A stretch of 64,000 bases of DNA from Takakia lepidozioides (Eukaryota > Plantae > Bryophyta): assembly GCA_030704615.1 (NCBI GenBank), contig CM060731.1, forward strand, positions 47,368,001 to 47,432,000, read 5' to 3'. This document shows, in pieces, positions 2,153-38,866 of this stretch; the first letter of the stretch is position 1; every line of letters starts with the position of its first letter. The notes below the pieces were generated by a model, which searched no databases, was not told where the DNA came from, and worked only from the letters and a program-made list of their open reading frames with translations. Made by a program: the position numbers and the translations under genes.

Positions 2153-2479
2153 TGTCAAGTTATTTTACCACTAGTGTGAAACTAGCTAGGAAATAGCTAG
2201 CTTTTACATATTGACATTTGGGATTGGCCCAAGTGTCAATCCAGGGGTCAAGGCAGATTTAGGCCCTGGAGTGGTTATCTTCACGGCAAGCGCGGAAGGC
2301 TCATCTTTCTCGAGTTGAGCCTCACCGCGCCTAGCTATGGCGCCGTAGTGTGGATTCCCCATGGCGTGGGGTGCACTTGGCTTGACTTGTATTTGAGTGA
2401 TGAGGTTATATATGCATGAGTTTATGCTTCAGCTTTGTGAGCTCACATGAGCTTGTGCTTGTATTCTTCTTCTTTATCA
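2153..2479 (+). repeat. Repeat A1 (327 bp), left terminus of the outer element
   Basis: Matches 20820-21146 with 2 substitutions seen by eye. Starts TG, ends CA. Confidence 0.95.
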
Positions 2480-2495
2480 CTCGAGAAAGATCAGC
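2479..2495 (+). promoter_or_regulatory. Putative self-priming primer-binding site
   Basis: ACTCGAGAAAGATcAGC at the end of A1 is the reverse complement (16/17, 13 contiguous) of 2299-2315. No TGG tRNA-type PBS is present. Confidence 0.6.
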
Positions 2496-4963: not shown

Positions 4964-5685
4964 TGTCGCGGCCCTTTGCCTTGAGGGCAGGGGGTCGGGA
5001 CACATGAGGGGCTGCCCCTGTGGTGGGGGCAGCGGCAGCGATAGGTATGGGGGGCTGAAGCACCCTTGAGTGCCCAAGGCACTCAAGGAGGCGGAGGCGC
5101 TCACTAGGTGGAGCCCGCACACCGGGTTGCGGTGGAGGTGGCTCCACAAGGGGTGGTGGTAGCTTAGTGGGACTTAGTGGGGGTGGCATAGGACTCACCA
5201 TGGGGTGGAGACCTCGAGGTGGGAGTCGTGGGGAGTCTTGGGACTCATCACGGTCCATTGGGGCCGCGGTGAGTGGGCCAAGACTCACCGCGACTCACCA
5301 CCGGGAGTCGAGGGTTTTCGTGGTGGTTCGCCATAAAATGGCATGGCTGGTTATGAAACCCCCGCGGACAGCTACAGAAGTATATATAGGGAGTAGTAAC
5401 CCCGAGAACGGTGCAAGCCCGTTGGTGACCAAAAACTAGTGAGTAAGCGAGCGAGCCGGAAAGCGACCAAAGAGTGGGGAGCTGTTCCGGACTGCCATCT
5501 ACCAAAGGGAATTCTCCTAGTCCCAAATAGGTGGAGGGTTTAGAGGGAAGCGGAAGGGGACCGTTATGTCCCGGTGAGCAGCCGAAACTCCAAGTTGGCC
5601 CGGCGGCCAGGTTGGGAGTCAGGCGCGCGCATCAAAGCGAGTAACTATGACTTGAAGGGGAGTTTACCGAATGAGGTGTGCGACA
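4964..5685 (+). repeat. 5' LTR of the nested chromovirus (722 bp)
   Basis: Near-identical to 11208-11931 (two 1-nt indels seen). Confidence 0.95.
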
Positions 5686-5687
5686 CT

Positions 5688-5699
5688 TGGTATCAGAGC
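5688..5699 (+). promoter_or_regulatory. Primer-binding site, tRNA-iMet
   Basis: TGGTATCAGAGC 2 nt after the LTR-terminal CA. Confidence 0.95.
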
Positions 5700-5740
5700 T
5701 TAGAGTTCAGTACGCGATCGTCCTTGGGATTGGCCTCATC

Positions 5741-8700
5741 ATGGGGTCGGGCAAGCCGAAGCGAAAGCGGAACGGCCCAAAAGATGATGACCCCGGTGAG
5801 CCCGATGGGGGCGACGTGTCACCGAGGCGGCCGTTTGAGGAAGCGATTAATGTTTCCGAAAACGAGGCCGCTCAGGAGCGGGAGGAATCCGAGGAGTCGG
5901 AGCCCGAGGAATCTTTGAGAGCTCCGACAAACCAAGAGATGCCTCCCATGCCGGCAGCCTTTTGGGAAGGGTTGTTGGCGCAGTTTGGCGGGACGTTGAA
6001 AGACGTGTTGAAGGCGGCTAATGCCACTTCCACCAAGGCAAAGTTTAAGGTGAAGCCTAAGGAACCCGGCACCTTCGAGGGCGTTCGAAACGGAAGGCAC
6101 TCAACACCTGGCTCCTGGAGCTAGAGCAGTACTTCCGGGCGGCCAAGTTGAGTGACGAGGATCGGGTGGAAGTGGCTCCCACCTATTTGAGGGGCTATGC
6201 TCAACAATGGTGGCAGAAACGCCTTCACGACCGAGGCCCAAGCCCGGAAACCTTGAACTGGAGTGAGTTCAAGGAATTGATGAAGAGACAGTTTGTGCCC
6301 CTCAACGCATCCTGGCTTGCCCGGGACAAGATGAGGAATTTGAAGCAAACAGATGACATTCGGGGGTATGTCCAGGCTTTCAATGTGCTGTTGCTCGAAG
6401 TCGCGGACATGGCAGAACCAGAAATGGTCTTCAACTTTGTGGCGGGACTGGCCCCATGGGCTAGGCGGAAGTTGGAGGAGAAGCCACCCAAGACTTTGAA
6501 CGAGGCAATTGAGAGAGCTGAATGTTTCTCGGATGTCCCTAGGGGTGAGAGACAAGGCCGTACGGAGCTGAACCACAAGAAGACCCGGCGGGAAGGTGAC
6601 TCCTCCCGACCGGAAAAGAAGTGGGATAGGCCACGCGGCGAAAATGGCACGTGGAAATCGAAGGGAGGTCCTTCACACGTCAAGGCGGCACCCGGTGCTT
6701 CGAAAGGAAAAGCGGGTGGAGCGACTTATGGCGGACAGAAGGCGACCTTTGATGGAGTGTGTTTCAATTGCGGGGAGCCCGGGCACATGGCCAAGAAGTG
6801 CACGAAGCCCCGGCAATTGAACATGACTCGGGCGACCACGGAGCTGTCGGAAGATACCATCAGTCGCTTGGTGGAAGCGGTGGTCGCCAGGACTTGCAAG
6901 GTAGGCAAATTTTCTTGTGAGTTGTATCAGGAAACTGGCGCCTTACGAAAAGGGAGTCAGTTATTGTTCGTGGATGGGATAATATCCGGAACTAATGTGT
7001 CGTTGTTGGTGGACACAGGAGCGTCGCACTCCTTCATGACGCCGGCGGCGGCGCGAAAGTTGGGACTCCCGACAAGTGACGTGGGGGCCTCTATTGAGGT
7101 GCGCTCTGCCAAAGGAGAACCTCAGTTGGCGACAAGGTTGGCGTTTGATGTTCCTCTTCAACTGGGGAGTTGGGAGGGACGTGAGAACTTCACTATCTGC
7201 GAGATCGATGGAGTGGATCTCATTTTGGGAATGACCTTTTTGAGCAAATCCGGAGCGGTCATAGATGGCCGCAAGAGAGTAGTCACGCTGCCATGTGGGA
7301 ATGGTGGCGAGGTTTTACGAGTGTCGGAAACGCCCAAATCCGTGGGAGGGCGAATAAACCTTCTATCAGCAAAGGAGTGGGCCGTGGAGGAGACACACGA
7401 GTCCCAGTTTTTGCTTTACATTAGAGAAGTGAAAGGAGAAGGCGATGGGGAGCCGAGCCCAGATTGGATCAAGGGGATTTTGGAGAAATACCAGGATGTG
7501 ATGCCGGAGGATTTACCAAGCGGCTTGCCACCGCGAAGAGGAGTTGACCACAAAATTGAGGTGATACCGGGATCGGAACCGCCTGCCAAGGCGCCCTACC
7601 GGTTGAGCCACAAAGAGTTGGTCGAGCTGAAGACTCAGCTCAAAGATCTAATGTCAAAGGGGTACATCCGGCCGAGTAAGTCACCTTACGGAGCCCCGGT
7701 GCTATTTGCAGACAAGAAGGATGGGACGCTGCGGATGTGTGTCGATTACAGGGCTCTGAATAAGGTGACTATCAAAAACCGGTACCCTTTGCCAAGGATC
7801 GACGACCTCTTCGATCGGTTGGCAGGAGCGAAGTATTTCAGCCGGATCGACTTGCGCTCCGGCTATCACCAAATTCGGGTGGCGGAAGGAGATGAGGAGA
7901 AGACCGCGTGCAGGACAAGGTATGGTTCATATGAGTTCTTGGTGATGCCTTTTGGGCTCACCAATGCACCAGCGACATTTAGCACGCTGATGAACAGCCT
8001 TTTCCAGGAGTGGTTGGATGACTTTGTGATCGTGTACATCGACGACATCTTGGTGTACTCGAAAACAAAGGAGGAGCACCTGGAGCACCTCAAAAGGGTG
8101 TTCCAAAAATTGCGAGAAGGGAAGCTGTATGCCAAAGCTTCAAAGTGCGAATTCGGGGTCACAAAAGTGGAGTTCTTGGGGCACGTGATTACACAGGATG
8201 GGATCAAAATGGATGACAGAAAGGTGAGGGCGATCTTGGACTGGGAGCCTCCGACTTCGGTCCCGGGAGTGCGATCCTTCCTAGGACTCGCCTCCTATTA
8301 CCGGAAGTATGTGAGAAATTTCGCCAAGATCGCGGGGCCGCTGTCGGACCTTCTGTGTAAATCCAAAGTCTGGGTATGGAACACATTTTGTGGCCAAGCT
8401 TTTGCTGAATTGAAGCAGCGGATGACGGAAGCTCCAGTCTTAAAAATCCCGGAGTTCGATCGTCCGTTTGAGATTCATACAGATGCATCGGACTTCGCAA
8501 TTGGGGGTGTACTTATGCAAGATGGACGTCCAGTGGCTTACGAAAGTAAGAAACTGAATGAAGTGGAGCGACGGTGGCCGACGCACGAAAAAGAGATGAA
8601 GGCGGTGGTACATTGCCTTGAACTCTGGCGCCACTATGTTGGTTCCAACCCAGTGAAGGTGTTCACGGACAATGTCACGGTGAAGTATTTTGCCACGCAG

Positions 8701-10301
8701 CCCAAGTTGTCCCCAAAACAACTTAGGTGGCAAGATACTTTGGCAGTGTTCGACGTGGATATCCAGTACAAACCGGGACGGGACAATGTGGTGGCCGATG
8801 CTTTAAGTAGAAAGCAGCAGCTCTTGTTGGTGTACAAGGGCGAGACGGCGCTCCAAAGGAAGATCCGGAAGGCTTGCCGGAAGGATGAGCTGGCAAAGTG
8901 CGTGATGCAGAACTTGAGAATGGGGGTTAAATCGCAGTTCCACTTGCAAAACGGACTGCTCCGGTATAAGCAAAAACGTCTCTATGTGCCAAAGGGAGGG
9001 ATCAGGGATAGTCTCTTGAGAGAATGCCATGATAGCCCGCTTGCGGGCCACGGTGGAGCCAAGCGCACTGCGGCACTCTTGAAGAAAGAGTATTTCTGGC
9101 CCAAACTGAGGGAGGAGGCAGAGGAGTATGTAAAGACATGCACCACATGCCAACAAAACCGGAGCGAGTATAAAAAGCAAGCGGGGCTGTTACAACCCTT
9201 GCCGATTCCAGAGGGGACTTGGGAAAGCGTCTCGATGGATTTCATGACTGCTATGCCGCTGTCAAAAGGATTCGATGCAATCATGGTGGTGGTAGATAGG
9301 TTCAGTAAAATGGCCCATTTCATCCCCACCAAGGAGACGGCAACTGCGCAGGAGACAGGGCGACTTTACTTCGCCCACGTCTTAAAGCATCATGGAGTCC
9401 CGAAGGATATTGTCTCGGACCGCGACCCAAAGTTTACGAGTAAATTCTGGAGAGCACTTTGGAAGAAGATGGGGACGAGGCTGAAGATGAGCACCGCCTT
9501 CCGACCTACGACGGACGGCCAAACGGAAAGAGTGAATTCCGTAGTGAAGCAATTCTTGCGGAATTACGTGTCGGCAGACCAATCAGACTGGATGGAACAC
9601 TTAGACGCGGCAGAGTTCTGTTATAATAACACAGAACACTCCGCGACGGGAGTTTCCCCTTTGTGTTGGTCTATGGAAAAGCACCTCTGGTGCCGACAAG
9701 TTGGGCCGCCCAGGACGTTGAGGAACCGGCAGTAGCGGCGGTACTGGAAGAACGCGAGCGTTTGTTGAAGCTCGCAAAGTACAACATTGCCAAAGCTAGG
9801 AAACGGTATGAAAGGCAGGCGAATCGGAAGCGGAGGGAAGTGAAGTTTGAGGCAGGCACAGAGGTCTGGTTGAACATCAAGAATTTTCGACTACCTCCGG
9901 AAATGAGTCCGAAGTTCGTACCTCCGTATGCGGGTCCCTTTCGCATTCGGAGGGTTATGAATGAGGATGTGTATGAATTGGAGCTGCCAGCAAACAGCAA
10001 GGTGCACCCAGTATTCCATGTCTCCCTTTTGAAGCCTTACTTCAAAGATGAAGCACGTCCGAATCGGCAGCAAGTGTTGCGTCCGCCACCTATGCTGTTG
10101 GATCATGAAAATGAACCCGAGTACGAGGTGGAGGCAATACTTAAGTCGAGGAGGTTCAAGAACCGAGAAACGGAGTATCTCGTCAAATGGAAGGGCTATC
10201 ATCTTGTGGAGGCATCTTGGGTGCGTGCCTCAGAAATGGGAAACGCATCCGAGGCAGTTGCAGCGTTCGAAGGGCGACCTCAAAAGCGGAAGAAGCGTTG
10301 A
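5741..10301 (+). CDS. gag-pol: Gag-Pol polyprotein of the chromovirus (two frameshifts, near 6100 and 9660)
   Basis: CCHC knuckle [14 protein letters not shown]; protease LVDTGA; [15 protein letters not shown]; RNaseH TDAS; integrase HH-CC, SMDF, SDRD, GQTER; GPF module; chromodomain [10 protein letters not shown]...YLVKWKGY...ASW. Split over ORFs 5678-6124, 6148-9735 and 9663-10301. Confidence 0.93.
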
Positions 10302-11207
10302 TGGGGACATCAACCTTGGAGCGTGGGGGAGGAAATGCATGCTTAGCCCGGTTTAGCTAGCTCAGGAATCCGATTGCAAAAACTTGTATTGTACAAAAAT
10401 TTGTGATAAAGGAAATGGGTTCCAAATATTGTGCGTCCTATTGTGTTTGGAATGGTGATGCATGGTGTGGTTGGCTGGTGTGTAGAATGCATGCTAGCTT
10501 ACAAAAGTGGGAGAGGTAAATTGGGTTAATCGTGTGTTTGCGCAGTGCCGAAATCGGGTGACTCCCATCCAAGGGGCAAGGAAACTTGCGCCTTATTTGG
10601 GAGTTCAAGTGCTAGTGCGCACCTGGCGCGTGCGCGTACTATAACTGCGCTACCGAGGGGGTTGCCTTGTAGTGCGGGCTAACGCGGAAGCTACGTGCTT
10701 CCGTTCACGTACTATAATCGTGTAGCCTCGGGACGAAGTCGTAGTGCGGCTTCGGCGTGTTCCCGTACCTCAGGCCAGCATTCCAAGGCGGACCCAATTG
10801 TAGTGATTGGGGCGCACGGTTGGTTCAAGGTTATCTTCCTAGTCAAAGAGGGTTTCAGGTGAACCCTTGCTCAAGGTGATGCCAAAAGCGGCATCATGAG
10901 CGATCGCAAGCAATGTTGTTGCAGTAAGGCGATTCGATCCTCGGGGAGGATCGTTCCTTGGCCTTGAAGTAGGCCAAGAAGAGTGCACTGGGAGGAGCTG
11001 GAGAGGCTCCACCCTTGGCCGGGACTTGGAGGAAGTCGGCCGAACTAGCTAGTGGAGAGTGGAGTCAAGTGTGGGGTTTGGTTCTTTGCCATGGGACGCC
11101 ATGGTACGGAAACAAACTCCTTGATGTGGGACGCCACAACTTGGATGTTCGTTTCTACAAAATGGACAAGTCGATGAGGACATCGACTCCCTGTTGGTAG
11201 GGGTGTG

Positions 11208-11931
11208 TGTCGCGGCCCTTTGCCTTGAGGGCAGGGGGTCGGGACACATGAGGGGCTGCCCCTGTGGTGGGGGCAGCGGCAGCGATAGGTATGGGGGGCT
11301 GAAGCACCCTTGAGTGCCCAAGGCACTCAAGGAGGCGGAGGCGCTCACTAGGTGGAGCCCCGCACACCGGGTTGCGGTGGAGGTGGCTCCACAAGGGGTG
11401 GTGGTAGCTTAGTGGGACTTAGTGGGGGTGGCATAGGACTCACCATGGGGTGGAGACCTCGAGGTGGGAGTCGTGGGGAGTCTTGGGACTCATCACGGTC
11501 CATTGGGGCCGCGGTGAGTGGGCCAAGACTCACCGCGACTCACCACCGGGAGTCGAGGGTTTTCGTGGTGGTTCGCCATAAAATGGCATGGCTGGTTATG
11601 AAACCCCCGCGGACAGCTACAGAAGTATATATAGGGAGTAGTAACCCCGAGAACGGTGCAAGCCCGTTGGTGACCAAAAACTAGTGAGTAAGCGAGCGAG
11701 CCGGAAAGCGACCAAAGAGTGGGGAGCTGTTCCGGACTGCCATCTACCAAAGGGAATTCTCCTAGTCCCAAATAGGTGGAGGGTTTAGAGGGAAGCGGAA
11801 GGGGACCGTTATGTCCCGGTGAGCAGCCGAAACTCCAAGTTGGCCCGGCGGCCAGGTTGGGAGTCAGGCGCGCGCATCAAAGCGAGTAACTATGACTTGA
11901 AGGGGAGTTTACCGAATCGAGGTGTGCGACA
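11208..11931 (+). repeat. 3' LTR of the nested chromovirus (724 bp)
   Basis: Direct repeat of 4964-5685, preceded by the G-rich tract GGTAGGGG. Confidence 0.95.
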
Positions 11932-12240
11932 GACGGGCTGTGAGGGGCTGTGACAGGCTGTGCCCATGGCCTCTGGGGCTGTGAGGGGCTGTGAGGGGCT
12001 ATGACAAGCCGTGCCTGAGGCCTTTGGGGCTGTGAGGGCTGTGAGGGGCTGTGACAGGCTGTGCCAGTGGCCTGTGGGGCTGTGACGGGCTGTTGGCGAG
12101 CTGTGACGGGCTATGAGGGGCTGTGACAGGCTGTGCCCAGTGGCCTATGGGACTGTGATGGCTGTGACCAGTGAGCTGTGTGGGCCTGTGCTGGTCTGTG
12201 GTGGCCCGTGTTGACCTGTGGACGGCCTGTGCTGACTCGT
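11932..12240 (+). repeat. GGGCTGTGA array, right part
   Basis: Same units as 3905-4963, decaying toward about 12240. Confidence 0.85.
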
Positions 12241-12876
12241 GGAGGCACTGGTGGACTGCCTAAGGACTGGCATGTGGTCTGGAAGGCCGAATTTTGAAGC
12301 TCGTGGAGGGCGGTTTGAGGAGTATCTTCATGATATTCCCATGGTCATGCAAGTGAGGGAAGAGAGGAGAGGAAGAGTGTTGGGATGAGGGCATGTTGGG
12401 GTTAGGCATTGCTTTAGCTTCTCTTCCTCGTAGTTTCCACCCTCTCATTAGGCCAAGACCTTTCCGTAGGTGGAGGCAAGAGTCAGTCCGGGTTTGGGCT
12501 GGGGTGTCCTTGCAGGAGCAACACCGTGGAGTTGTTTTTGGTGTGGGGCCTACACCTGTACCTGCATACTTGACTGTGCGCCATGCTAGTTTTGTGTGGG
12601 CGCTTGTTTTTATAGGTGATTGGTCCGGATTTGATCACCGGCCAGTCCTAGAGCATGCTGTCGATGGTGAGGCTGGGGTGATGACCAGCCGGACCATCAT
12701 TGTTTCTCCTGTGGTGAGGTTGGAGGTGATGACCAGCCAACCATAGGAGTGCTTGCGGTGGATGCAGGTACAGGTGTAGGCTATATTAGGTACTTAGTAT
12801 TCCAAACCATAAGCCGCAACATGTTCTCTACCCGGTTACCTTGTGGAGAGGGGGTTAGGGACATGTTCATGACCGG

Positions 12877-14140
12877 TTGAGTGTCAACACGGAGGTGCCA
12901 CTAGTTGCTGGGGACAGTGCCGGTTCGAGCACTAGCGATACTAGTGGGTACACGAGACGAGGTGTGCGGTTTAGGCCACCTTCACCTCCTGTGTCTTCCA
13001 CGGAAGGTTCTGATTCGGATTGTGAATCAGGAGGACTCATACCGGCAGTGCAAGTTGTTTCTTTGTCATTGTTGTGGGACACAATGGAGGAGATGTATGG
13101 AGCTACCAAGGGGCCACGAAGGTACTCTGGGGCGGTGGGCACCATCGAGTTGGATGATTTTATCCAAGAGTTTGATAGTTGGTGTGATTTGCAGCAAATG
13201 CGCAATCCACAACTATTTACGCCGTTCATGGCATGGAAAGGGCTGTTTCAGCACCTTGAGGGGCCGCCTATGGATGATTACCATGAGTTCAGGCGGGGGC
13301 ATGAGGTTAAGATCGAGGAGTGGAGGATGTACTGGTCACCCGACTATGTCTCCATCACTAGGGGCACTAGAGCCACGAGGGCAGTGGCTACACCTGCCGC
13401 TGCACCGGCAGCTTCAGCAAGTAGCAGTGGAACTAGTGGGACTGGTGGTACAGTAGCTACGACGTCCACCCAAGCCACTACCGCACCAGCACTAGCACCC
13501 GTGCCTGCCTTCAACCCTGTTGTGGAGTTCTTCGAAGAGTTGAGAGGGAACTACCAAGGGGTGAGGACAGAGAAGTTGCGGAGCTTGCAAGAGTTCCAAC
13601 GGAAGCCGACCGAGAGCTTGAGGGAGGCTTTCACTCGCATGAGGCGCTTGATAAATGTAACCCAAGGGGTTACGGAAGCTCAGGCAGTCCAATTCTGGTA
13701 TGGGATATTGGACAAGGAGTTGAGGAGAAGGGTGCGGGATGCAACTCTCCTACAAGCGGCCCAACCCACCTTAGCAAATGTGTTTTTGCTGGCAGAGCGG
13801 ATAGAGCTCAACATGGTGGAGGAACGAGTGGTCATGGTGGGATTTGCTAAGGAGACACCACGGGGTAGTGGTGCTCCTAGCCAACCACTACCTCGTGCTC
13901 AAGGCAACAAGGGGCTCAGGTGAAGCTCAGGGAAGGGCAGAGATGACCTCAGATGCAGGGGTCTCTCCCTTCATTTGCTGGCCAACAACGGGCGGAGGTG
14001 GTGTGCTGGACATGTGGAGGACCCCATGTCAAGAAGGATTGCCGAGAGGGAGGCACAGGGTCGGCACATGCATAGCCTGCACAGTTGCAGTGTAGGCATT
14101 GTGGCAAGCACGGGCATGGACAGGCCCAGTGTTATGGTTT
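12877..14140 (+). pseudogene. gag: Gag of the outer element with two CCHC zinc knuckles (stop and frameshifts)
   Basis: ORF 12877-13923 is retrotransposon-Gag-like (FQRKPTESLREAFTRM...QFWYGIL). It is followed by CWTCGGPHVKKDC (about 14004-14042) and CRHCGKHGHGQAQC (14091-14132). Confidence 0.8.
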
Positions 14141-15662
14141 GCATCTTGAGTTGCGCCCAGGCCAGTTCCAAGGGAACAATGGTGGCCGGGGGCGAGGTGG
14201 AGCAGCCCAGAGAGGACGAGGTGGCCAGCCACGAGGTGCAGGCCAAGGGCAAGCTCAACGTGGCCAAGGACGCGGAGGTCAGGGTGTTGACCAAGGCATG
14301 GCCAACCGGCTTCAGCAGCTAGAGCAGAGGCTCGCTGCCATGGCTACAGCTCAGGTGGTACCGGCTCTAAGGCCGGATGGTCCACCTCCTGCTCCTAAGG
14401 GAGGAGATATGGGAGGCATGGGATTCATGTGTGGAGCAGCACTACCACTAGTGCAGGTGGAGTCTGCTGCAGCCGTGACTCGAGGAGCAGCACGAGTTCC
14501 TGAGCCACGAGGTGCAGAGGTGGAGTTGGATCCACAGCGTGGGGAGGCAAGCCGTCAGGCTAGGCTTCCTCAGTCATTCACATTGGCGGAGACAGTGTCA
14601 ACGCCATCCATGGCACCTAGTTCTCGCCCGACGGTTACCAAGGCGGAGGTTATTATGCCATTGGGGAGAGCTACACGGGTAGCACCACTACCTAGTGTTG
14701 CCAAGGCTGCGGCTGCTAGTGTGCTGCTAGGAGCGGCCACATCTGTGTGCCAGGCTCCATTGTTCTTGGCTACCATGATTGCGACGCCGGGGGTAAAACC
14801 AGCTGAGGTGTTCAGGCTGGCAGCTACACTCTGTGAGAGTGGGGAGGTTACTTCATCTTCTGCGGAGATAGTGGGAGGTGTAGTGTCGGAGGGATCCTCG
14901 GATTTGAGGGTCAAGACTGCTATGGCGGCGCCATGGCAAGCTGCAGCTGCCAGGTTGATGGAGCTGCCAGCTAGGCCAGCCATTGAGCGCGCCATGGTGA
15001 CACCTGGAGTTGTCATGTTAGACAACCAGGATGGCATTTTCTGTTTGAGTGGACCGGCAGGCAAGAGGTACCGGCCACTGCGGGTCTTGTTGGACTCAGG
15101 AGCTCAGCCATTGATGCTGGGCAAAGCTGCTATTGCAGGCTTGGGCCTCACGGAGACGGATATGGAGCCTTGTCCTTTCCAGATACAGACGTCTCTGGGA
15201 GGATCGGAGCAGGCTCGGGGCATGACACGGCGTGAGTTGGCTATCAGACTACGGCCGGATCACCCTATAGATGGCTCAGTGATGCGAGCCAAGGCCATTG
15301 TGACAGACGTAGTCTCATACGATGTCCTGGTTGGTGGGGCAGTGTTGTACCCCATGGGCTTCACCCTGGATTTTTGGGAGGAGTCAGCTTCCTATAGGCC
15401 TGTATGGCAGTCAGGGGAGGGCCGGCGTGTGCAGCTCCCTGTGACGTTCATAGGAGGAGTTGCGGTTGCCCAGCGATGCAAGATGCCGACACTAGCAGCA
15501 TTCACAGCGGCAGTGAGTTGGCCTAGAGAGTTGCTTGAGGGCAATGCTCATTCAGAGGATGTACCACCTCCGGGAGAGCAGGATGACATGTATGGTATGG
15601 CGGAGTTGCCTACCATGGTTGCTCAGACTCCATTGTGGGGCACGAGCAAGGATTTGCAGTAG
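14085..15662 (+). pseudogene. RG-rich linker and retropepsin aspartic protease of the outer element
   Basis: VLLDSGAQPLM active-site motif and distal YDVLVG motif. Confidence 0.85.
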
Positions 15663-15804
15663 GATGCTGATTGACGGGTGCAACAAGCCTGGGTGGAGGT
15701 TTTTGTACCGTCAGGAGAGGAGGAGAGTGTGGGGATTGCACCAGGACCACCTCAATTGTCTCCATTGGACACCACACCTATTGTGTGGCAGTATCCGGAT
15801 GAAG

Positions 15805-16755
15805 GCATTTGTCTTCTGGACTTGTTTGGCGGGATCAGCACCGGATTGGCTGCTGTGTTACAAGCAGGTGTACGAGTTCGGCGTTACCTGTATGTGGAGA
15901 GGGATGAGACTGCACGACGCGTTTCACTTCACCATGTTGCTTAGTTGGTGCAGCGGTACCCTGAGTTGTTGTTGGTGTCTGCAATTCGTGGATATCAGCA
16001 GGCCTTGCCAGCAGACATTTCGTTGCTGGGGGCGCAAGATTTGGAGCGGGTTGGCTCCATTGATCTGGTAGTGGCAGGTTGGCCCTGCCAAGGGCATTCA
16101 TCAGCCGGGCATGGCAATGGATTGCAAGACTCGAGGTCGGGTCTGTTTTGGAGATGGTGCGGGTTTTGCGCCACTTACAGCTTCATCAAGCTGTATCTCC
16201 AGCATACATCTTGGAGAATGTGCCACTGATGGGCGATTCTCGGGCCAGGGTGATGGCCAGTGCGCATCAAGTCCGCTCGTGACTTGGGTTAGCACTGTTG
16301 CTAGATGCAGCTACAGTGGGGTCACGGGCTCATCGTCCACGGCTATGGTGGACTAACTTGATGCCACCCGCACTCCTCAAGCGTGCATTTGGTGGGGTGC
16401 AGTGGCCAGCACATCTCACAGTGGATAACATTCTGGACACAGGGAGGCAGTCTCAGCGTGTGAGACACGATGACCGTTCGCCTTGGCAGTGGTCAACAAG
16501 GTGGGTCAACCACGAGCAGCATTACCTACACTGCTCAGCTTCCCAGGATCGCATGCTTTCCGGGATAGTGGACCTGGCCTCCTGTGGGATGCTCAGTTGC
16601 AGCAGTTAGTGGAGCCTAATGCTGACGAGCGTGAGCGGGCAATGGGTTTTACCACTGGTACCACGGCGGTGTCGTCTCTTTCTGAGGCATCACGTCGTCA
16701 AGTGTTGGGGCAAGCAATGGATCTCAATTGCTTGACCTGGATTATCGGCTTGGCT
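15805..16755 (+). pseudogene. C5-cytosine DNA methyltransferase domain embedded in Pol (disrupted)
   Basis: Ordered motifs: I LLDLFGGIS, II YVE, IV AGWPCQGHS (catalytic PC at 16083-16088), VI LENV (16211), VIII HRPRLWW (16331), IX ERERAMGF (16627), X LGQAM (16705). The domain is spread over ORFs 15678, 15945, 16079, 16298 and 16483. Confidence 0.93.
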
Positions 16756-17178
16756 CTGGCTGAGCAACGCAGAGTGCGGAGTACACTTTCCTCAATGGTC
16801 TCTCTGCCTACCGAGACGGTACAGGCAGTGAGTGGGGGCGAGCATGTGAGGACCACGGGGTGCATGCATCCATGGCACACGTGGGAGGTGCTCGAGGTTC
16901 AGAGGGAGTTGGCAGCCAAGGCGGCTGTGATGGATGAGGTTGGGGATTCTTCTCGGGTTGAGGAGGTCCTCAAGGATGAGATGATGGGGCAGGATGAGGC
17001 CTTGTCATTGACTGAGCAGGCAGGGAGTATTGCTCAGGAGGTTGCAACATAGCAACCACTGGACGCGTCATCTACCTCTAAGCCCACTGGACTTAAGGTT
17101 GCAGTTACGGAGGACAATTGGGAGCCTGACATTGGACCCATTGTCACCGGAGGAGAGAGACGACGTATACGGCGGTTC

Positions 17179-18560
17179 TTGAGGGCTTACAGGAATTGCT
17201 TTGCCTTCAGTTTGAAGGACTTGGGAGCACTGAAGGGTCAAGAGATCCGTATTGAGTTGGCCACTGACACGCCAATCTTTCGGAGACCCTATAGATACAG
17301 TGACATGGAGAGGTCTTTGATTCAGATGAGGACTCAAGATCTCTGGGAGGCAGGTTTGGTGGAGCTCTCTGGTGGAGAGTATGCTTCAGCCACAGTGATG
17401 CCAGCCAAGAAGGATGTCTATGGCAATTGGATGGAGAGACGTATGTGCGGTGATTACCGGCCTGTCAATCGTCAGACCAAGTCCGATAAGTATGCCATGC
17501 CAACACCAGATGAGATCTTTGATGCCATCGGGCATGCTAAGGCCTTTAGCACTTTGGATTTACGATCCGAATATCACCAGTTGCCAATCAAGGAGGCGGA
17601 CAAGCAGAAGATGGCATTCTGGGGGATCAATGAGCACGGCAAGGATTGCCTATATCAGTGGCGGGTTCTTACCATTTGGGCTTAAGAATGCTCCTGCAGA
17701 GTTTCAGAGAGTCATGGATAGGATTCTAGCAGGGGTGGACTTTGCTCGGTGCTACATAGATGACATCATCATCTTTAGTGTTACGATGGAGGAGCATGAG
17801 AGACACCTTCAGGTGGTATTGGAGCGCTTGAGAGCGCACGGATTGAAGTTGCATCCGGGGAAGTGCAAGTTTTTCCACAACCAGATTGAGTATCTGGGTC
17901 ACATGATATATCCTGGAGGATTGGGGGTACATCAGACTAAGGTAGAGACCATTGCACAAATTCCACGCCCCACGGATGTGAGCCGAGTTCGAGCTTTCAT
18001 GGGGTTGGCAAACTATTATAGACGGTTTGTCAAGGGATTTAGTACCATTGCAAAGGCTCTAACCAAGCTGACCAAGGTGGACCAGGAGTGGCAGTGGGAA
18101 GATGAGCAGGAACGAGCTTTTCAAGAGCTCAAGGCGAGGTTGACCTCGGCGCCTATCTTGAGACGACCTATCAGGGGGCGTCCCTTTCAGCTGCATACGG
18201 ATTGGAGCATGCTGGGGCTTGGAGCGGTGCTCACACAGGTGGATGATGAGGGAAGAGAGTTCGTAGTGGCTTATGCTAGCCGCTCGAACAACGCTGCAGT
18301 GGCTAAGTACAGCTCATATGAGGGAGAGTGCTTAGCTGCAGTGTGGGCCGTGGCACACTTCAGGTGCTATCTATACGACAATCTTTTCACCCTTGTCACG
18401 GATCACCAGCCACTCAAGTGGTTGATGGAGTCAGACAAGCTTACGGGGAAGCTTGCACGGTGGGCACTCATACTCCAGGAGTATGACTTTCAGGTTGTAC
18501 ATCGACCAGGTTTGGTCAATCGGGATGCGGATGGATTGAGTCGCAATCCATGCATGAGCC
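17179..18560 (+). pseudogene. pol: Reverse transcriptase and RNase H of the outer element
   Basis: RMCGDYRPVN, LPFGLKNAP, YIDD; RNaseH LHTDWS, EGECLA, TDH, ADGLSR. Frameshift near 17665. Confidence 0.95.
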
Positions 18561-18899
18561 AGCAGGGTGACACTGGAGCTCGGTGGCATGGTGAGACGGA
18601 CGAGGAGATGGTGTCGGATGGCACGCATCTGCATTTTGTGTATCTTGGCATCGGGAGGTCAGGTTGGACCTACAACAGGGATGATGTAGAGGGGTGTCTG
18701 AGGACCCTGAGGCTAGTGATGAGCCAGGTGGTGCCAGAGATATACATGAGGATTCGGCTGTGTTGGACTACCTCCGCACGGGAGACACGGCAGCCACTGT
18801 GACTGCCAGAGAGAGGGATCGGATCCTGCAACGAGCCAAGAGGTTCAAGTGGGAGGGGATACACCTACTTCGAGTAAATGGGGGGGTGGGTGGGATGTG

Positions 18900-20153
18900 C
18901 CTTGGGGCACCCCACACAGCGTGGGTTAGTGCGGCATGCACATGACTTTTGGAGTGCGACGCACTCACAGTTTACTGGGGGCAGGGTGGGGGTATGTACG
19001 AGGTGCAACAGTGGCTAGGTGCATGGTGTGTGACAGGGTGCGTGCTTCATTCAACGCCCCTACACCACAGTTGCATCCTTTACCAATCATGGGATTGGGC
19101 TACAGGTGGAGTCTTGACTTCGCAGGACCGTTGCCACTGACTATGCGCCACCACAGATATGTGTTGGTATGGTGGAGCACTTCTCCAAGTGGATTGAGTT
19201 GGTTCCATTGCCTGACAAGGCTAGTGAGAGGGCTGCGTATGCATTCTTGGATCGTGTGCTTAGCCGATTTGGTGCTCCAGCTGAGGTACTCACGGACCAA
19301 GGGAGAGAGTTCTTGGGGAGTTTCAGGCTTTGTGTGATAAAGCCTTGATAGACCACCGCACCACTTCTCGGGATCATCCTGAGGCCGATGGCTTAGCAGA
19401 GAGAGTTGTTCAGACGGTGAAGAGGGGTTTGCGCAAGTATGGCTTGCAGAAGGGACACCTAGGAGATTGGGATCTTCAGGTTCCTTGGTTAGCCATGGGC
19501 TACAGGTTCAGCAAACAAGCATCACTTGCCTCCTTCTCACCATATTTCCTTCTCTTTGGCCGAGAGCCGGATTTGCCTGCAGCCATTCGTAGGGACACTG
19601 CTCAAGTCCTTAACTTGACGATCCGGACGTGTGGGTACGTGCATGTGATCAGCGTGCAGAGTTGTTCAAGAAAGTCATGCCCATGGCTTTTGAGAACCTT
19701 GCCATTGCACAGCACCGTGATACGTTGAGGTATGCCACTATACGTGGTGGAGGATATCGTCCTGGGGTTCGGAGGTTTAGCCCTGGTGACTATGTTTATT
19801 TGCAGCAGACTGCTCCTACGACTCTGGATGTTACTGCAGGGCGTGTTATTCTGAGGGTTCGCGAGGTGTTGCCCTCAGGGGTCCTAATCTTAGAGGGTCG
19901 GGATGGCATGACTTGGAAGGACCATGTGCGTAATTGTGCGCCATGTCACCTTCCCAATGTCAATGGCAGAGTTGACCCAAATTTGGCAGTGGTACCTGCA
20001 GGTTTGAGGTGCATGCTCTGTGGATCTGCCAAAGGGGCAGCCACCATGCTGGTGTGTGATCGATGCTCAAGGGGTTGGCATATGGGATGCTTGACACCAC
20101 CTCTTGAGAAGGTTCCTGACAGAGATTGGTTGTGTCCACACTGCTTGGGATAG
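18900..20153 (+). pseudogene. DDE integrase with C-terminal PHD finger (frameshifted)
   Basis: RCMVCDR zinc motif, WSLDFAGP, LTDQG, HPEADGLAER, FSPGDYVYL. C4HC3 motif CMLC...CDRC...WHMGC...WLCPHC at 20010-20150. Confidence 0.9.
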
Positions 20154-20632
20154 TGGCAGTGGACATGACTGGAGGCAGCTAACAAGACATGGGAGGCCAA
20201 GCTCATAGGAGTCAATACATGAGATCCCAAGCTCAAGTTCACAGGTTGCAAGACGGCGACTAACGATGGGGCAACTCTTGCACCCGGCCTCTTGATCTAT
20301 CGAGTTTGAGAGCGGTGTTAGCCCAAAATGTTACAAGAAATATAGATTCATCGGTATACTATGAGGCATCACAGTGAACATGAAATACTACATGCCAGTG
20401 AGGGTTAATCAGCACAGGTGTAGTTGTTACTGACAATATAAGTTCTTCAAAGGCCTGTTGACATTCAGCTGTCCATGCAAACACTGCATCTTTCTTCAGA
20501 AGCTTGCTCAATGGTGCTGCTATCTGTGCATACCTTTTGACAAATTAGGGATAATGGTGGAGGACTTAGTGAGGCTATGGTCACTATCACATCTTGTGGC
20601 TACCTGGACTTAGAGGGACCTAAGCACCAGCT

Positions 20633-20640
20633 AGGGGGGA
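20633..20640 (+). promoter_or_regulatory. Polypurine tract of the outer element
   Basis: AGGGGGGA immediately before repeat B1 (T-TGTGTGG...). Confidence 0.6.
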
Positions 20641-21323
20641 TTGTGTGGACTAGTGACTGCCATAGTGGGCAGCATAGTGACAGCCTAGTGACTGACTAGT
20701 TGTAGCCTAGTGGTTGGACTAGTGGTGGACTAGTGGTATACTAGTGTGTGGTGTGCCCATGTGTTGTGTGGTTTTGGACAGCGATGTAGTTGTGTAGCGA
20801 TATGTATGCGCACGACAGCTGTCAAGTTATTTTACCACTAGTGTGAAACTAGCTAGGAAATAGCTAGCTTTTACATATTGACATTTGGGATTGGCCCAAG
20901 TGTCAATCCAGGGGTCAAGGCAGATTTAGGCCCTGGAGTGGTTATCTTCACGGTAAGCGCGGAAGGCTCATCTTTCTCGAGTTGAGCCTCACCGCGCCTA
21001 GCTATGGCGCCGTAGTGTGGATTCCCCATGGCGTGGGGTGCACTTGGCTTGACTTGTATTTGAGTGATGAGGTTATATATGCATGAGTTTATGCTTCAGC
21101 TTTGTGAGCTCGCATGAGCTTGTGCTTGTATTCTTCTTCTTTATCATTGTGTGGACTAGTGACTGCCATAGTGGGCAGCATAGTGGCAGCCTAGTAACTG
21201 ACTAGTTGTAGCCTAGTGGTTGGACTAGTGGTGGACTAGTGGTATACTAGTGTGTGGTGTGCACATGTGTTGTGTGGTTTTGGACAGCGATGTAGTTGTG
21301 TAGCGATATGTATGCGCACGACA
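20641..21323 (+). repeat. Right terminal block B1 (20641-20817) - GC - A2 (20820-21146) - B2 (21147-21323)
   Basis: B1 and B2 are 177 bp with 3 substitutions seen. A2 matches A1. Confidence 0.95.
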
Positions 21324-21573
21324 CCATGCACCTCTAGTTATTGTGTTGAGGTGCATCCACCTTCTCTACAATGTAACAGAAGGTACATGCCTCACCTTGG
21401 GGTTCTGGTTTTGGGTGGCCTCTCCCTAGAGGCCTACCCTTCACATCATAACTAACATCTAACTATAGTAGACATACTATCAGGAAAAAGAACTATGAGT
21501 TTGAGCAAACTGAATACCTATCAAGACTAGATCAGTAATTACATTTAAGATTTTGAGGGATGTAGTTATCGTA

Positions 21574-22929
21574 CCATATTTTTGGAGTTGACAACCTTGA
21601 TTTGATAGACTCCATAATTGCTGTACAAGGTATTGCGTTCCATTAATACCAAATAGATTGTAGACCACATTTGTGTTTTTATCTTGCAATGGATGGTCGT
21701 TTGGGTAGCTACTGCATATACTGATGTTATACCCACCGTGATAGTCCCCATACATACTCGGATGACCGCAATATCCGTAGTCGCCTGCACCATATACATA
21801 TAAGCACATATCAGCCACTTCACTACCCTCAGTTACATTATAAATCCAAGCGTCGAAATATGGGTCAGTGGTAGTATTTGCCACTTCATTCATCATCATA
21901 TTCAATAGTGTATCTAGGGCTCCATTTGGGGAGACATGATGATTGGGGGGTTGCCAACTGGCCCGACTCAAAAAGTAGACATCGCATTGTTGATTAAGAT
22001 TGTTTTCTTAAGAGGGTAAGGGAAGGTATGCCCAGAGAAGGTTTGTACTATTTTTACATTCTGCTTTGGTTTGTATAGTCCAATTGGCTAAACAATAGGA
22101 ACCATGGAGGGAACAGTAAACATCTCCACAATTTGTTACATCTGTATTAGTGAAAATTAAAGTAAATCCCGTTCGCATCAATAGGTAAGATGCCCGACGA
22201 ATTTTCCAACTGCAAATTTGTTGTTATGATATCGAATAGATCACGACCATCTGCGTTGATAGATGTCCCATGTGAATAGAAATCCTTCGTCTCCATCGCA
22301 ATAGTTACAACGTTGCTGACACGACTTTTGGAGTTGTGAGAATAATACTCGGTGGCAATTTGCCACCAGTTGGCTAGGTTAGGAAACTCCTTAATTGGGG
22401 ATGGCGGGGTCAAAGAAAGAAGTGCATTGCGCACAACACTCTGAAAGCTATCAGACCATTGTCCATACCAAATGATGTAAATGTAAATTGGATCAGACAT
22501 CACTTCTCCACCAAAAGTTTTCATTGTGATCACCGGAGGCCGCCATGGTGGTAGAGGTTGTTTAACTAGGTCCTCATGACTTATGTGTCGCACATTATGG
22601 AATTTGGGGCCCGTTGGTGCTTGGTAGTTTGTTGTCGCAATATTATTAGACTGCAACATACTCGAAGAGTCATGGGCATTTATAGTGGACAACGCTAGAG
22701 ACCCATCGCCATTTGAATATGCTTGAATGTTGCACATACTCGGACAAGTCAATACACTGATATATATTAGAAAAACAAAGCTCGCCCCAGTTGCTGTGGG
22801 CGTATCGTTTGTCTTTTGCTTCCCATCATGACCTCTATAGTTCACCAAGATTATGTAAGTACTACAACCTTGAAAAGACCATACAACCAGTGATGTGCAA
22901 CTTACAATGACAAAAAGATATAAATCCAT
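21574..22929 (-). pseudogene. PHI-1/EXORDIUM-like protein (frameshifted)
   Basis: GGEVMSDPIYIYIIWYGQW, LANWWQIATEY, SPNG.LD, TDPYFDAW, EVADMC, YN..GING..YLVQQLW. Frame breaks lie in 21972-22160 and a phase-1 GT donor follows QKY at about 21573. Confidence 0.8.
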
Positions 22930-24384
22930 GAAGTCAGACGTTATTTCTTATATCGAATTTAGAGGTTGCTAGAGCGATGATAGCAAAGCATGAAAATTGA
23001 ATATTGACAGTTGTATATGATCCAAGCATCTCTTTTGTCAAGTAGATTTTTAAACATTATAATAATACCTCAATCGAACTTTTCTTGGATATCCTAGATC
23101 CTTTTGTTGTTATGTCTATAACATCCAGCATTGTTTAATGAACTTGAATGAAAATGTTCAAAGTCCTCATAAGAAGCAAAACCTTTCCATCTTTTGACAT
23201 TATGACCAGACATTTACTTGCAAAATTCATGATTGAGTGATTCATATTCTATGTAGTATGTATTAATTTATATTTGAAAGTATGTAACTTATAATTGAGT
23301 AATAATTTGAACATCGAATTGAAAGCATAGCATAGACCCTGATAGCAAAAACAACAATTTATCCTCATTATTCCATTGATGTGTAATGTGATTCATGCAA
23401 GTTTATTCGTTTACCAAAAATACCCTATAGTTGTATTTCACATCATAATGACGTGACGTGAATATTTCAAAATATTCAAAGAATAATAATGCAAAATGAC
23501 ACTACGATGTGGATTCATGATGTGACTTACGACATGTTTAGTCCCTATAGAGTCATTTTGTGCAACCTTGATTCACACAATAACGTAGTGATATTATGGA
23601 TGGTTGTAACAACCACTATCATTAAAAATTTGACTAAAATTAATTTATGTAATTTATAAGTTGGCAATTATTGACCATTTGGAACTGGACCTCACTCTCA
23701 TATTGCCAACATATATGGTCACAACTTAGGGGGCTTATTTATAAGCTCAGCTATTCTATTAATTAATATAGCTTTGGTTCATGTTTGTGTTTTTCTCTAG
23801 GGCCATCCGTGAGTAGAACCCACTAAAGTAGGTACTAACTTAATATTTAATAAGTATAAGAGACATGGAAATGAGCGCTCTTCTCCTTCTTAGGGTGGCG
23901 GCCCCAACCCCGTCAAGCGGCTGTCGACCTTTCTAGAAGGTTGCCCCACACATGTCAACCCTAGAAACCACCACTTGACACATGTACTGTACTTACCCCA
24001 ATTTGCGCCTGAACCATCATCCAAATTTAATAGTTGTCGCGTTCTTCCAATCTTTCTTGGACCCCCTTACACGAGGGGCTCACGCAGGGCTGACGTGACA
24101 TGAGCGCAGGCTGACGCACTGTGACGTGGTGTGAGCCCACGCTCACGCCACGTCAGCCCGAGCGGAGGCCACGTCAGCAAATGCCAAAGGACGGGTGGTC
24201 GAAGAAAGGGTACCTATTCCTATTGCACCTATATCCGTGGGAATAGGCATCTACAATATGATGAAATTAGGCCCCATTATGTAAGAAGACCCCATGGCTT
24301 CAATGAATAGGTAGGACTGTAAACCGCCGACCTATTGCATACAAGACGACAAAGAATCCACCATATTCAAATGCATTCAATACC

Positions 24385-27320: not shown

Positions 27321-30300
27321 GTACCCCAGGGTACTCCTGGGTACAGGGGTACCTGTACCCAAGGGTACCAATGGTGTTTTTTTTTTTTTTTTCAAGTTAC
27401 CTGGTGTCCTCCTGGACACCCGTCTTTCTTATAGGGCCCACCACCCAAAGGGGCAGTAGCCGTAAGGTGAAGTGGCTCTTAGTTACGCCAGTCTTGACCG
27501 GAGTCTTCTCTCTATCTCTGCTAAAAGAAAATAACCAATGTTGTGCTGGTATATTATTTTAAACATACCCTCCGGGTCCGGGTAAGAAGGAAATTTATTT
27601 TGTCTTACCTTTAGGGTCCGGGTGCACTGTATTTTCAAAATTATACTTTGCCTTGCCTTTATGTTTGCATACATCGGGCGTGGAGTAGGGCCACTTGGAG
27701 TCGAATAGGAAAGCCGGGGTGGACTAGATTGACGAGCACCAAGGAAGGGCACTGCAATTAGATATAGCCATAGAGCATCATAAACACCACACACGACCCA
27801 AGGTTGATTTCCATCTCACCTTCTATTCATTGTGTTTATTTTACTTATTTTCTTATGTGATCCACGGCCAAGAGAGCCGATTGAGATGTCCAGGGACAAA
27901 GAAGCCACCTGATGGAAGTTGACATGTGATTGTGAGACCAAGGAAAAGATTCTCTCTAAGCTTACATCTGTATGAGGGAGGTATCAAGAGCAACAAAACC
28001 TTCCATTTGCATTTTTATTATATTTATGTATTTATTTATTTGAGTACAACTAGAATGTTATCTAGTTGTTCGTGGATTGGGAGCCTTAGTGAGATTGTTT
28101 GAGAGAGTTGAAAGGTAGTCTTGTCTATTGTTCAAGCAAGAGAGTGTGGAGATAGGGTAGTGGGATGAGGGCATGAGTGTGGAGTTATGAATTGCTTTAG
28201 TCTCTCTTCCTTGTAGTCTTTCACCCTCTCTAGGCCAAAACCTTTCCATAGGTGGAGGCAAGAGTCAGTCCGGGTTTGGGCTGGGGTGTCATTGCAGGAA
28301 CGACATTGTGGAGGGGATCCAAACACAAGAAAATCAAGACAACAACTCCCCCACACCAAACCTGTAGAACCTCACATCTGAATAGCACTAGAATTGATAC
28401 CTTGGTCACAGTGAGCATACGGCTCACCAGAAAGCATCCACTAACCCCAAGCAAGAGAGAGAGAGAGAGAGGCAGCGGAAGGGTTGGGTTTTTTTTTTTG
28501 TTAGTTACTACTTACTATAGTACCTAGTGGGCTGCACACGCAAGGCCCCAAAATAAACGCAAACATGAACCATAGATGTATTAATAGGGACACAGCTAAA
28601 TAAATAAGGGGCCCTGGTTCATAACTTTAACAAGGAAGATAAGTTCTTACATTGCTCCTATTATCTGCCTCCTAGAGAGGTCCGGATGCACAGCGGCCAT
28701 CAATGCGCAGTCCTCTTTGAGGTTGAGAAGTTGACCCCATTTGGTAGTGCCGTGCTTTCCTTAGGAGATGAATGGAGTTCCAGTGATAATTTTAGTCTTT
28801 AATATTTGACGCCTCCCGAATGAAGCGTAAATTATGGTGTCTCTTCACCCCGAAGGGTTACTGCCTTCCGCTAGGAAGGTGGACACGTTTGTGACACCAA
28901 AGGTGGATTGAACCCACAACCACTTCCGAGGTGGTATGTGCCCATTACCACTGGGCTACAACTTGGTTGTCTCCCAGTGATAGAATTGTCTCACCCTTCC
29001 AAATGTCTGGGCTGTGTTCGTCGATGGTTCGGAGTTGTCTATCACAATACATTGAAATATTGGATTTATCCTAGTGACTATACAAGTAACAACCACCCCA
29101 GAATTCTTGATGGGTATACTGCAAATTCTCAAGTTCAATTAGGTCCACACCTTTCACCCATACCATGAGGCCTTGTCCCTCTCTTTGTAGAGAAATCCTC
29201 TGGAATAAGATGTCCCTAGCTTAACGACTGCTGTTCCATAGCTTACAGTGACGCACTCATTGTTTGATGGCAGATCCGTTCCCTCAAGTCCACCTAGCAT
29301 GTAACTAAAGTAAATCAGACAATCCTCAATTTGCGACAAAGCCTGAATGTATGATCTAGTCTAACAACTAGGAGTGTTGTCCCAATGTCTATGTCTCTTT
29401 CCTTCATTCTCTCCGGTGAGTATGACCCCAAAGCTGATACGACCAGCTTTATCCCTGTTATGGACTCTTTGGCAACTAGACGTACTAGGAAGAGCAGGCT
29501 AACAATGGGGTTTTGATCAAACCTGCCTTGGCATAACCTACATGCCTGAGAGCCAAGTCACTGTCAAACAAAAGCATGAGTACTACCCAGATAAGTCAAA
29601 AGAAATGTACCAGGAGATTCACCTCCGAGCAATCTTCTCCCACTCAATATTTTCTGCAATGAGCAATCGCTCCGAGGCCAGCTTCCAAATCTCCCGTCAC
29701 TGTGTGTGAGGGAACTCACTGCCGCACCTGCCATCTTATACCAAAAACATGTGAATACCAGGTAGAAGAGACAACAAATCGAAAAAAAATAGTTAACCAA
29801 TAAGTAGTAGACAGATACTCTTCCGCCTTTTTGTCAAGAAAGCCCAGAGGTTTCCATCATCTCACAAAAGACTGTCTTTTACTGTCCCTTTGTCACAAAA
29901 CCTTCACACAACATAAATGGCTCCCAAATGAACCACACAAAGTCAGAAGCAACATATGAGGAATGTGCAGGGACAAGAACTGCTTCCTCAGCATGCCCTT
30001 CATGAAGGATTAAATGTTCCACCATTGGCTGAAGCCTCCATCGCACTGGTTCCATCTCCTTCAGAGCTTCCAACATTGCTGAGCAAAGTGGCACATTTCC
30101 TCTGGGATCCCATCGCTGCACCAGCTCATCTAGCTGCCCAACTTGAGCTACCACATCCACATTGACGTCATCCACCTCCCCAAAACTTCCGTTTCCTGGT
30201 TTGTCCCAACTCCCTCTCGGCAATCAACATCTTCAGGGGTTCAAGGGCATGCCATCGTGTTCCCTTGAGGGATAACGAAGTGGAGATAAGCCATCAGACT

Positions 30301-38827: not shown

Positions 38828-38860
<33 letters not shown>

Positions 38861-38866
<6 letters not shown>

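Follow-up and report, generated by a model that had tools for sequence, protein, structure and literature searches.

A DNMT3-bearing Ty3/Gypsy retrotransposon in a moss genome, with a likely readthrough stop behind the methyltransferase and a likely attachment site inside its LTR

Why would a retrotransposon encode the kind of enzyme that normally silences it? The question is raised by a 64,000-nucleotide stretch of the Takakia lepidozioides genome (hereafter the window), in which an earlier note had seen a cytosine-5 DNA methyltransferase (DNMT) inside a retrotransposon polyprotein. According to the available text of de Mendoza et al. 2018 (PMC5890265), DNMT3-bearing Gypsy elements are described in the alga Klebsormidium nitens only (KnitGypsy-Dnmt3), and their acquisition is seen there as specific to that lineage; here we find one in a land plant. 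The element of the window is of the KnitGypsy-Dnmt3 kind, a variant from a land plant in which, judging from sequence, a stop likely subject to readthrough joins the DNMT with Gag and an attachment site likely lies inside the LTR. With moderate confidence we propose that it is one decayed member of a Ty3/Gypsy family widespread in bryophytes, which would package a DNMT3 at Gag level by means of a leaky stop, methylate its own cDNA and integrate through the internal LTR site. The observations from which this account starts are the domain order, the conserved stop with its context and purifying selection on the methyltransferase.

The element and its methyltransferase

The element occupies positions 2153-21323 of the window (Table 1; related loci and proteins are given below by L and P numbers). 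Its gag-PR-RT-RH-IN order with a DDE integrase is that of Ty3/Gypsy, and TG...CA termini, a short target duplication, a primer site and a purine tract are all present. The two identical terminal LTRs typical of that group are not found, the ends reading A...B-GC-A-B, and it is no chromovirus, since a PHD finger and not a chromodomain follows the integrase. PAT/Ngaro-type is the label for split-repeat elements with a tyrosine recombinase; a DIRS/PAT/Ngaro identity was rejected because of the DDE integrase and the 4-bp duplications, and no tyrosine recombinase was matched in the 12 element frames scanned. The integrase fragments of the window copy gave no direct Pfam match. Its Gag region is damaged by a frame break near 13910 and stops at 13944 and 14073.

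Table 1. Features of the DNMT-bearing element in the window
Feature	Position	Strand	Remarks
Left target duplication, CCAT	2149-2152		right copy at 21324-21327
Repeat A1	2153-2479	+	starts TGTC, ends CA; 99.4% identical to A2 over 327 bp
Predicted self-primer	2303-2314	+	12-bp perfect complement of 2480-2491
Primer-binding-site position	2480-2491	+	immediately 3' of A1; not tRNA-type TGG
GC-rich tandem array, ~51-bp unit	3903-12200	+	5' leader; repeat families D2-D4; split by nested element
Nested unrelated chromovirus	4963-11931	+	725-bp LTRs; gag-PR-RT-RH-IN-SH3-chromo; without DNMT
Gag with zinc knuckles, ORF1	13084-14150	+	Retrotrans_gag E 0.001; collinear with Marchantia P0006
Aspartic protease (LLDSGAQ)	14955-15450	+	weak Pfam match; relatives E 1e-5
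DNMT3-type C5 methyltransferase domain	15777-16770	+	motifs, Pfam, profile and fold comparison; broken
Motif I, LLDLFGG	15813-15833	+	
Motif II, YLYVE	15885-15899	+	
Motif IV, DLVVAGWPCQ	16062-16091	+	
Motif VI, YILENV	16205-16222	+	
Motif VIII, HRPRLWW	16331-16351	+	
Motif IX, ERERAMGF	16627-16650	+	
Motif X, RRQVLGQAMD	16693-16722	+	
Conserved amber stop, CAA CCA context	17050-17058	+	in RT frame; predicted readthrough site
Reverse transcriptase and RNase H	17116-18550	+	RVT_1 E 7e-22, RT_RNaseH E 3e-34; frame break near 17668
DDE integrase, frame-broken	18930-19620	+	motifs read; aligns with rve-bearing P0077
Integrase C-terminal region to PHD finger	19614-20153	+	PHD ~20010-20144, PF00628 E 3.9e-11
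Polypurine-tract-like G run	20629-20639	+	immediately 5' of B1; conserved in relatives including distant L076/L077
Repeat B1	20640-20817	+	ends GACA; 98.3% identical to B2
Palindrome GACA-GC-TGTC	20814-20823		B1/A2 junction; putative internal attachment site
Repeat A2	20820-21146	+	pairs with A1
Repeat B2	21146-21323	+	right end of element

Six-frame translation bears out what the earlier note had read: the seven DNMT motifs follow one another in canonical, non-permuted order (15813-16722), with protease upstream and RT downstream, and the catalytic C, E and R-x-R are retained. The Pfam DNA_methylase check that it proposed gave a match on the motif-IV piece (E 1.8e-8, 34.6 bits against a cut-off of 22). 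When a profile of 14 relatives was compared with solved structures, DNMT3A came out best (E 3e-19), followed by DRM (8e-12), with Dnmt2 and HhaI at about 1e-6 to 1e-5. For the predicted structure of the relative P0004 (pLDDT 61, pTM 0.67), all 40 listed Foldseek matches were DNMT3A/B/C. By profile and structural model the element-borne domain is almost certainly a DNMT3-type C5 methyltransferase, nearer to DNMT3 than to DRM, Dnmt2 or bacterial enzymes.

The earlier note overlooked that the frames of this domain are broken. In the window the DNMT is spread over three frames: in-frame stops interrupt it at 15942 and 16280 and the frame breaks near 16149 and 16482, which leaves this copy unable to make the enzyme; upstream there are further stops at 15660 and 15672, in addition to the two in Gag. 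These lesions belong to the window copy or its lineage, because other copies read otherwise: at stops 15660, 15942 and 16280 they differ in four read sets (in X1, by 97-100% of summed depth), and at both DNMT frame breaks many carry one extra base. These frame breaks may partly be assembly errors. Small indels also occur in the young nested chromovirus, whose 725-bp LTRs are identical except for two gaps of one base and whose ORF has one frame break, which hints at assembly indel errors and at possible artefacts in the DNMT element as well. The terminal repeats of the latter are nearly identical (2/327 bases differ in A and 3/178 in B), so the insertion is young, and an already decayed lineage mobilised in trans would have given rise to it.

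The CpG observed/expected ratio of the element (0.51) is not lower than that of the LINE and host genes in the window (0.37-0.46), and depletion of CpG and CWG does not separate it from the rest of the window; the CpG ratio weighs against our account. A 155-bp piece of the 5' leader (12381-12531) recurs at 28161-28313 with 86% identity. The LINE-like region (53355-60052) has endonuclease and RT frames on the minus strand (54056-57574) between long inverted repeats of ~1.4 kb (53355-54751 and 58664-60052, 98%), part of which recurs at 38847-39302. Host genes code for a Phi_1/EXORDIUM-like protein (22147-22947, minus strand), a DYW-type PPR protein (31225-33789, minus strand) and a LysM-receptor-like kinase domain (37499-38809, plus strand; best named matches in mosses at 57-59%, liverwort 46-47%, ferns ~40%). 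The PPR gene and the kinase are signs of a moss host.

Split repeats and a candidate internal attachment site

The ends of the element are split repeats, A1...B1-GC-A2-B2, with TGTC/GACA termini. As a purine tract precedes B and a primer site follows A, the working LTR is likely B-GC-A, with B1 representing its U3-like 5' portion and A1 its 3' portion. The palindrome GACA-GC-TGTC then falls within the LTR; it is exact in L007, L008, L070 and L076, occurs with transitions in L035, L042, L047, L063 and L077, and together with the upstream CACGACA (with CG and CAG/CTG inside) is conserved across families that are ~50% identical in protein. Target duplications of 4 bp flank the window element and were found among seven other loci as well (five exact, one at 3/4, one eroded). 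From this sequence pattern, the attachment site likely lies inside the LTR and is cut at the internal palindrome. Separately, at L035:14718-17324 lies another element, more distantly related (53% in RT-RH), which shares the purine tract, the B-A-B end and a near-palindromic junction.

The primer site is complementary to an upstream LTR segment, as in elements of the Tf1 type. Among 2000 shuffles of A none reached a 12-bp complement, and a different 16-bp self-priming pair occupies the same place in L061/L065/L070. The pair is thus supported by covariation: the sequence differs between two families and complementarity is kept. Segment 2303-2314 is likely, as a prediction from sequence, the 5' end of the RNA. 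Transcription would then begin near 2303, the first 12 bases would prime reverse transcription at 2480 in a Tf1-like manner, and plus-strand synthesis from the purine tract before B would produce a linear cDNA of the form (B-GC-A)-body-(B-GC-A). The nested chromovirus has an ordinary tRNA-Met-type primer site (TGGTATCAGAGC, near 5690). Primer sites complementary to the RNA 5' end are likewise described in the accessible text on Tf1/Tj1 of fission yeasts and the Tcn1 clade of mosses (PMC4600332, PMC6317226), but those elements have ordinary two-LTR ends, and Tcn1 chromodomains, whereas the moss element has a PHD finger, a DNMT and split repeats.

How would such a cDNA yield the observed ends? 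Among right ends of the large family with an intact purine tract, 6/13 continue into GC-A and 7/13 stop after B, a count that leaves out L045 (contig end) and the deleted L032, L049/L050, L052/L053 and L064; 4-bp duplications accompany both forms. The A/B seams are alike in L008, L047, L063 and L070, contain filler in L042 and retain nine bases of the primer site in L052/L053. Since the seams vary and one holds part of the primer site, joined cDNA ends are favoured, and the A2/B2 seam would represent the joined ends of linear cDNA; it counts against this model that in one family four seams out of six are nearly the same, a precision beyond that of typical end-joining. No left end is preceded by B-GC (0/22, of which 21 are distinct), so that use seems confined to the upstream palindrome. 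A plain 2-LTR circle that could be cut at either palindrome predicts the mirror form A-B-GC-A-body-B, which is seen at none of these left ends, so that an extra asymmetry is needed. In the standard strand-transfer scheme of retroviruses, the upstream LTR copy becomes double-stranded first; by that scheme the upstream palindrome would be the first to become double-stranded here too. The DDE integrase would cut the palindrome inside the upstream LTR, not the DNA ends, and insert with a 4-bp duplication. Joining of the free outer ends, either before insertion (as a 2-LTR circle) or after it, would give A-body-B-GC-A-B, and loss of one repeat would leave A-body-B.

Parts of this scheme have precedents. 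In the available text of PMC1180852 and PMC4372172, the integrases of foamy virus and HIV-1 cleave palindromic 2-LTR junctions, so that a DDE integrase likewise acts at an internal palindrome and leaves integration-ready ends; there the palindrome arises by end joining on a side route, whereas the moss palindrome is encoded by the LTR and would serve the main route. The repeats of KnitGypsy-Dnmt3 were called 'the same as that of a DIRS retrotransposon' in PMC5890265, which the split repeats of the moss element match; the available part of that account gives no priming or integration model. SymbioDIRS-Dnmt3 of Symbiodinium and the PAT/Ngaro-type elements share the A...B-A-B layout, and SymbioDIRS-Dnmt3 a DNMT3 too, but the moss element differs from them by its DDE integrase and 4-bp duplications as well as by its purine tract and primer site.

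The use of a single site could also be explained by a restriction-modification logic, in which the integrase cuts GACA-GC-TGTC and a DNMT made at Gag level methylates, and thereby shields, the second palindrome and the genomic ones. In favour are the conservation of the palindrome and CACGACA (CG, CAG/CTG) across families so divergent in protein, the joint occurrence of DNMT and split repeats here and, by the accessible description, in KnitGypsy-Dnmt3, and the lack of the mirror form at all 22 left ends. Nonetheless, host CHG methylation would explain the junction transitions of old copies just as well and the timing of strand synthesis alone could yield the asymmetry; we consider this explanation unlikely. 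If true, it would mean that the DNMT decides which palindrome is cut and protects those in the genome.

A conserved stop between methyltransferase and reverse transcriptase

A stop is found at the homologous site of the DNMT-RT linker in 55/56 copies (55 loci plus the window), L079 alone being without it; 53 were counted automatically, and L055 and L075 were added by inspection. It is mostly amber, with TAA in 14 automatically counted copies and in L055 and L075. The strict TAG-CAR-YYA context is present in the window, L030, L076, L077, L078 and L082, whereas the largest locus group has CAA CCC; the background of CAR-YY after TAG/TAA within the window is 0.9%. The CAA CCC context of that group and the TAA copies weigh against our account. 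In L082, which was examined separately, one amber alone splits open frames of 1162 and 905 codons. At the protein level, seven Klebsormidium-clade proteins end ~12 residues past the DNMT, among them KFL_013780020 of K. nitens, which is Gag-PR-DNMT and in this respect like the moss ORF1. The stop at 17050, which the earlier note had also missed, is therefore a family trait and not a lesion private to the window copy. Since it separates DNMT from RT, ORF1 is Gag-PR-DNMT, the RT-IN-PHD part would likely depend on readthrough, and the DNMT, lying upstream, is expected at Gag level. The description of the domain as sitting 'inside Pol' overlooks this stop, by which the DNMT comes to lie with Gag, ahead of a likely readthrough site.

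By analogy, the conserved amber stop is likely a leaky readthrough site. In the available text of PMC2754532, CAR YYA after UAG is the readthrough signal of TMV in plants, likewise an amber codon in CAR-YY(A) context governing a downstream polymerase; the moss stop differs in sitting after protease and methyltransferase, not at the usual gag/pol border. If the TMV rule applies, a minority of ribosomes would read through and add RT-RNase H-integrase-PHD, and the protease would then free the individual domains. In KnitGypsy-Dnmt3, according to the accessible text of PMC5890265, DNMT, RT and RNase H belong to one ORF; in the moss element the frame is the same, with the conserved stop in between. 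PR-DNMT-RT runs in one open frame in the related elements P0097, P0229 and P0234 and in Closterium P0221, and chlorophyte-type elements have the DNMT between RNase H and integrase. Consequently, a Gag-level dosage of the DNMT is not required throughout the lineage.

What might the enzyme do at this dosage? It is established that Gag fusion favours packaging. In the least secure step of our account, the abundant packaged DNMT would methylate new cDNA within the particle, probably at CG given its kinship with DNMT3, and the cDNA would reach chromatin already methylated. Alternatively, Gag-PR-DNMT might act mainly outside the particle and methylate host chromatin or, in trans, the element's own genomic copies, in a self-limiting or PHD-aimed manner. 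The same stop predicts a high dosage for such a role and a PHD finger does terminate the integrase, but ORF1 is without a chromatin reader of its own, the PHD lies on the readthrough side and the Gag fusion argues for packaging; we are inclined to doubt this possibility. Host-benefit models, which would agree with it, were raised in the available text of de Mendoza et al. (PMC5890265). The same text reports de novo CG methylation in yeast by the DNMT3 domain of SymbioDIRS-Dnmt3, and no methylation in yeast by the K. nitens domain, a result that the authors call inconclusive.

There is also the view that translation truly ends at the stop and that a spliced or subgenomic RNA, or else re-initiation, supplies RT-IN; the DNMT would still be on the Gag side, with no readthrough. 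The largest locus group does have an ATG two codons 3' of the stop, but that ATG is missing in the window, L030, L076-L078 and L082, which keep the frame and CAR-YYA, and this view seems to us quite improbable.

Family spread, selection and meaning

The earlier note was right to point to Klebsormidium, KnitGypsy-Dnmt3 being the closest known element, and understated how common such elements are in land plants: they are present in liverworts and mosses and highly multicopy in the window species, in whose read set X1 28,343 contigs match 2.4 kb of the element. The DNMT piece matches 76 proteins among 1948 candidates, the best at 81% identity and named ones from Marchantia, Calypogeia and Sphagnum mostly at 70-76%. 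Marchantia P0006 (Mp_4g09160) is collinear with the window from gag to DNMT in one frame, an uninterrupted Gag-PR-DNMT model. A metagenome scan confirmed 119/375 pattern matches; 80 loci were kept, all 80 with a DNMT and mostly in the order gag-PR-DNMT-RT-RH-IN-PHD. Many of these come from a single peat-moss-like family, and certain insertions are represented by two assemblies, so that independent lineages number ~7 (window, L030, the large family, L072, L076, L077/L078 and L082).

A profile search returned 411 representatives at E 1e-30 or better, of which the best 150 comprise one PR-DNMT-RT group and a larger RT-RH-DNMT-IN-PHD group; more distant named members come from Closterium, K. nitens and Scenedesmus. 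The larger arrangement defines a sister Gypsy group (P0085-P0209 and P0359-P0360; one cluster is from Scenedesmus) with the DNMT between RNase H and integrase and a terminal PHD, which we did not find reported in the literature searched. Bryophyte elements group with SH-aLRT 90 in a quick DNMT tree and 99 (starred) in a quick RT tree, and the RH-DNMT-IN group, into which the DNMT-only fragments P0087, P0089 and P0146 also fall, with 97 and 100 (both starred); the base of both trees is not resolved. The DNMT tree, which covers element DNMTs and leaves out host DNMT3, separates bryophyte, Closterium, Klebsormidium and RH-DNMT-IN groups, their order being unstarred and the two outgroups long. The RT tree has 48 rows and two outgroups and leaves out P0221 and the K. 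nitens RT.

Neither a viral nor a bacterial source was supported: among 68 pattern matches in viral contigs there was one weak locus (34%), and among 87 in genome contigs one element of the family, read as contamination. This element, L082 (CADCWO010000201.1), is near-intact, sits in a cyanobacterial metagenome-assembled genome and is likely eukaryotic contamination. Two further observations are a DIRS-like protein (P0073) in which one frame encodes RT, a related C5 DNMT and also a Dam adenine methyltransferase, and a reversed, heavily decayed DNMT-bearing element within L063.

The dN/dS comparison that the earlier note had proposed gave 0.03-0.23 between families for the DNMT, where dS was finite, and 0.015-0.04 for RT-RH, synonymous sites being near saturation; within the decayed large family values are 0.36-0.66. 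By these sequence comparisons the DNMT is under purifying selection between families, a feature that, together with the Gypsy domain set and a non-permuted DNMT3, is shared with KnitGypsy-Dnmt3 in the accessible text of PMC5890265. That the DNMT is a captured host fragment private to the window copy and evolving neutrally, a case named by the earlier note as refuting its claim, is itself refuted by these comparisons: the window copy is broken and, by a strict pattern, only 6/81 loci have motifs IV-X in one stop-free frame, but the domain sits at the same position in liverwort, moss and algal elements, is under purifying selection, and where the window has its premature stops, other copies in X1 read differently in 97-100% of their summed depth.

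In the literature we found no report of a DNMT-bearing Gypsy element in land plants, nor of the DNMT-RT stop or the internal-attachment model of the ends, in a search outside which lay most subscription journals and Repbase Reports. The available text of Sarre et al. 2025 and a 2026 preprint cites 'streptophytes' and adds no new cases, the words 'methyltransferase' and 'PHD' are absent from Neumann et al. 2019, and the accessible parts of PMC11982613 and PMC9033089 held nothing relevant.

The known range of DNMT3-bearing Gypsy elements, so far a single alga, thereby comes to include land plants, among them the tractable model Marchantia. It is tempting to go further and to envisage a Gypsy lineage spread across green plants that combines a mid-LTR attachment site, a Gag-level DNMT3 and a restriction-modification-like pairing of integrase and methyltransferase, but we hold this broader picture to be doubtful. 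The internal attachment site would account for the 'DIRS-like repeats on a Gypsy' that the 2018 paper left unexplained, and the stop 3' of the DNMT predicts the dosage of the enzyme. Standard LTR finders would miss elements with split repeats, and their DNMTs could be miscounted as host genes. Finally, because Marchantia Mp_4g09160 is uninterrupted, the question of why a retrotransposon carries an enzyme that normally silences it becomes directly testable.
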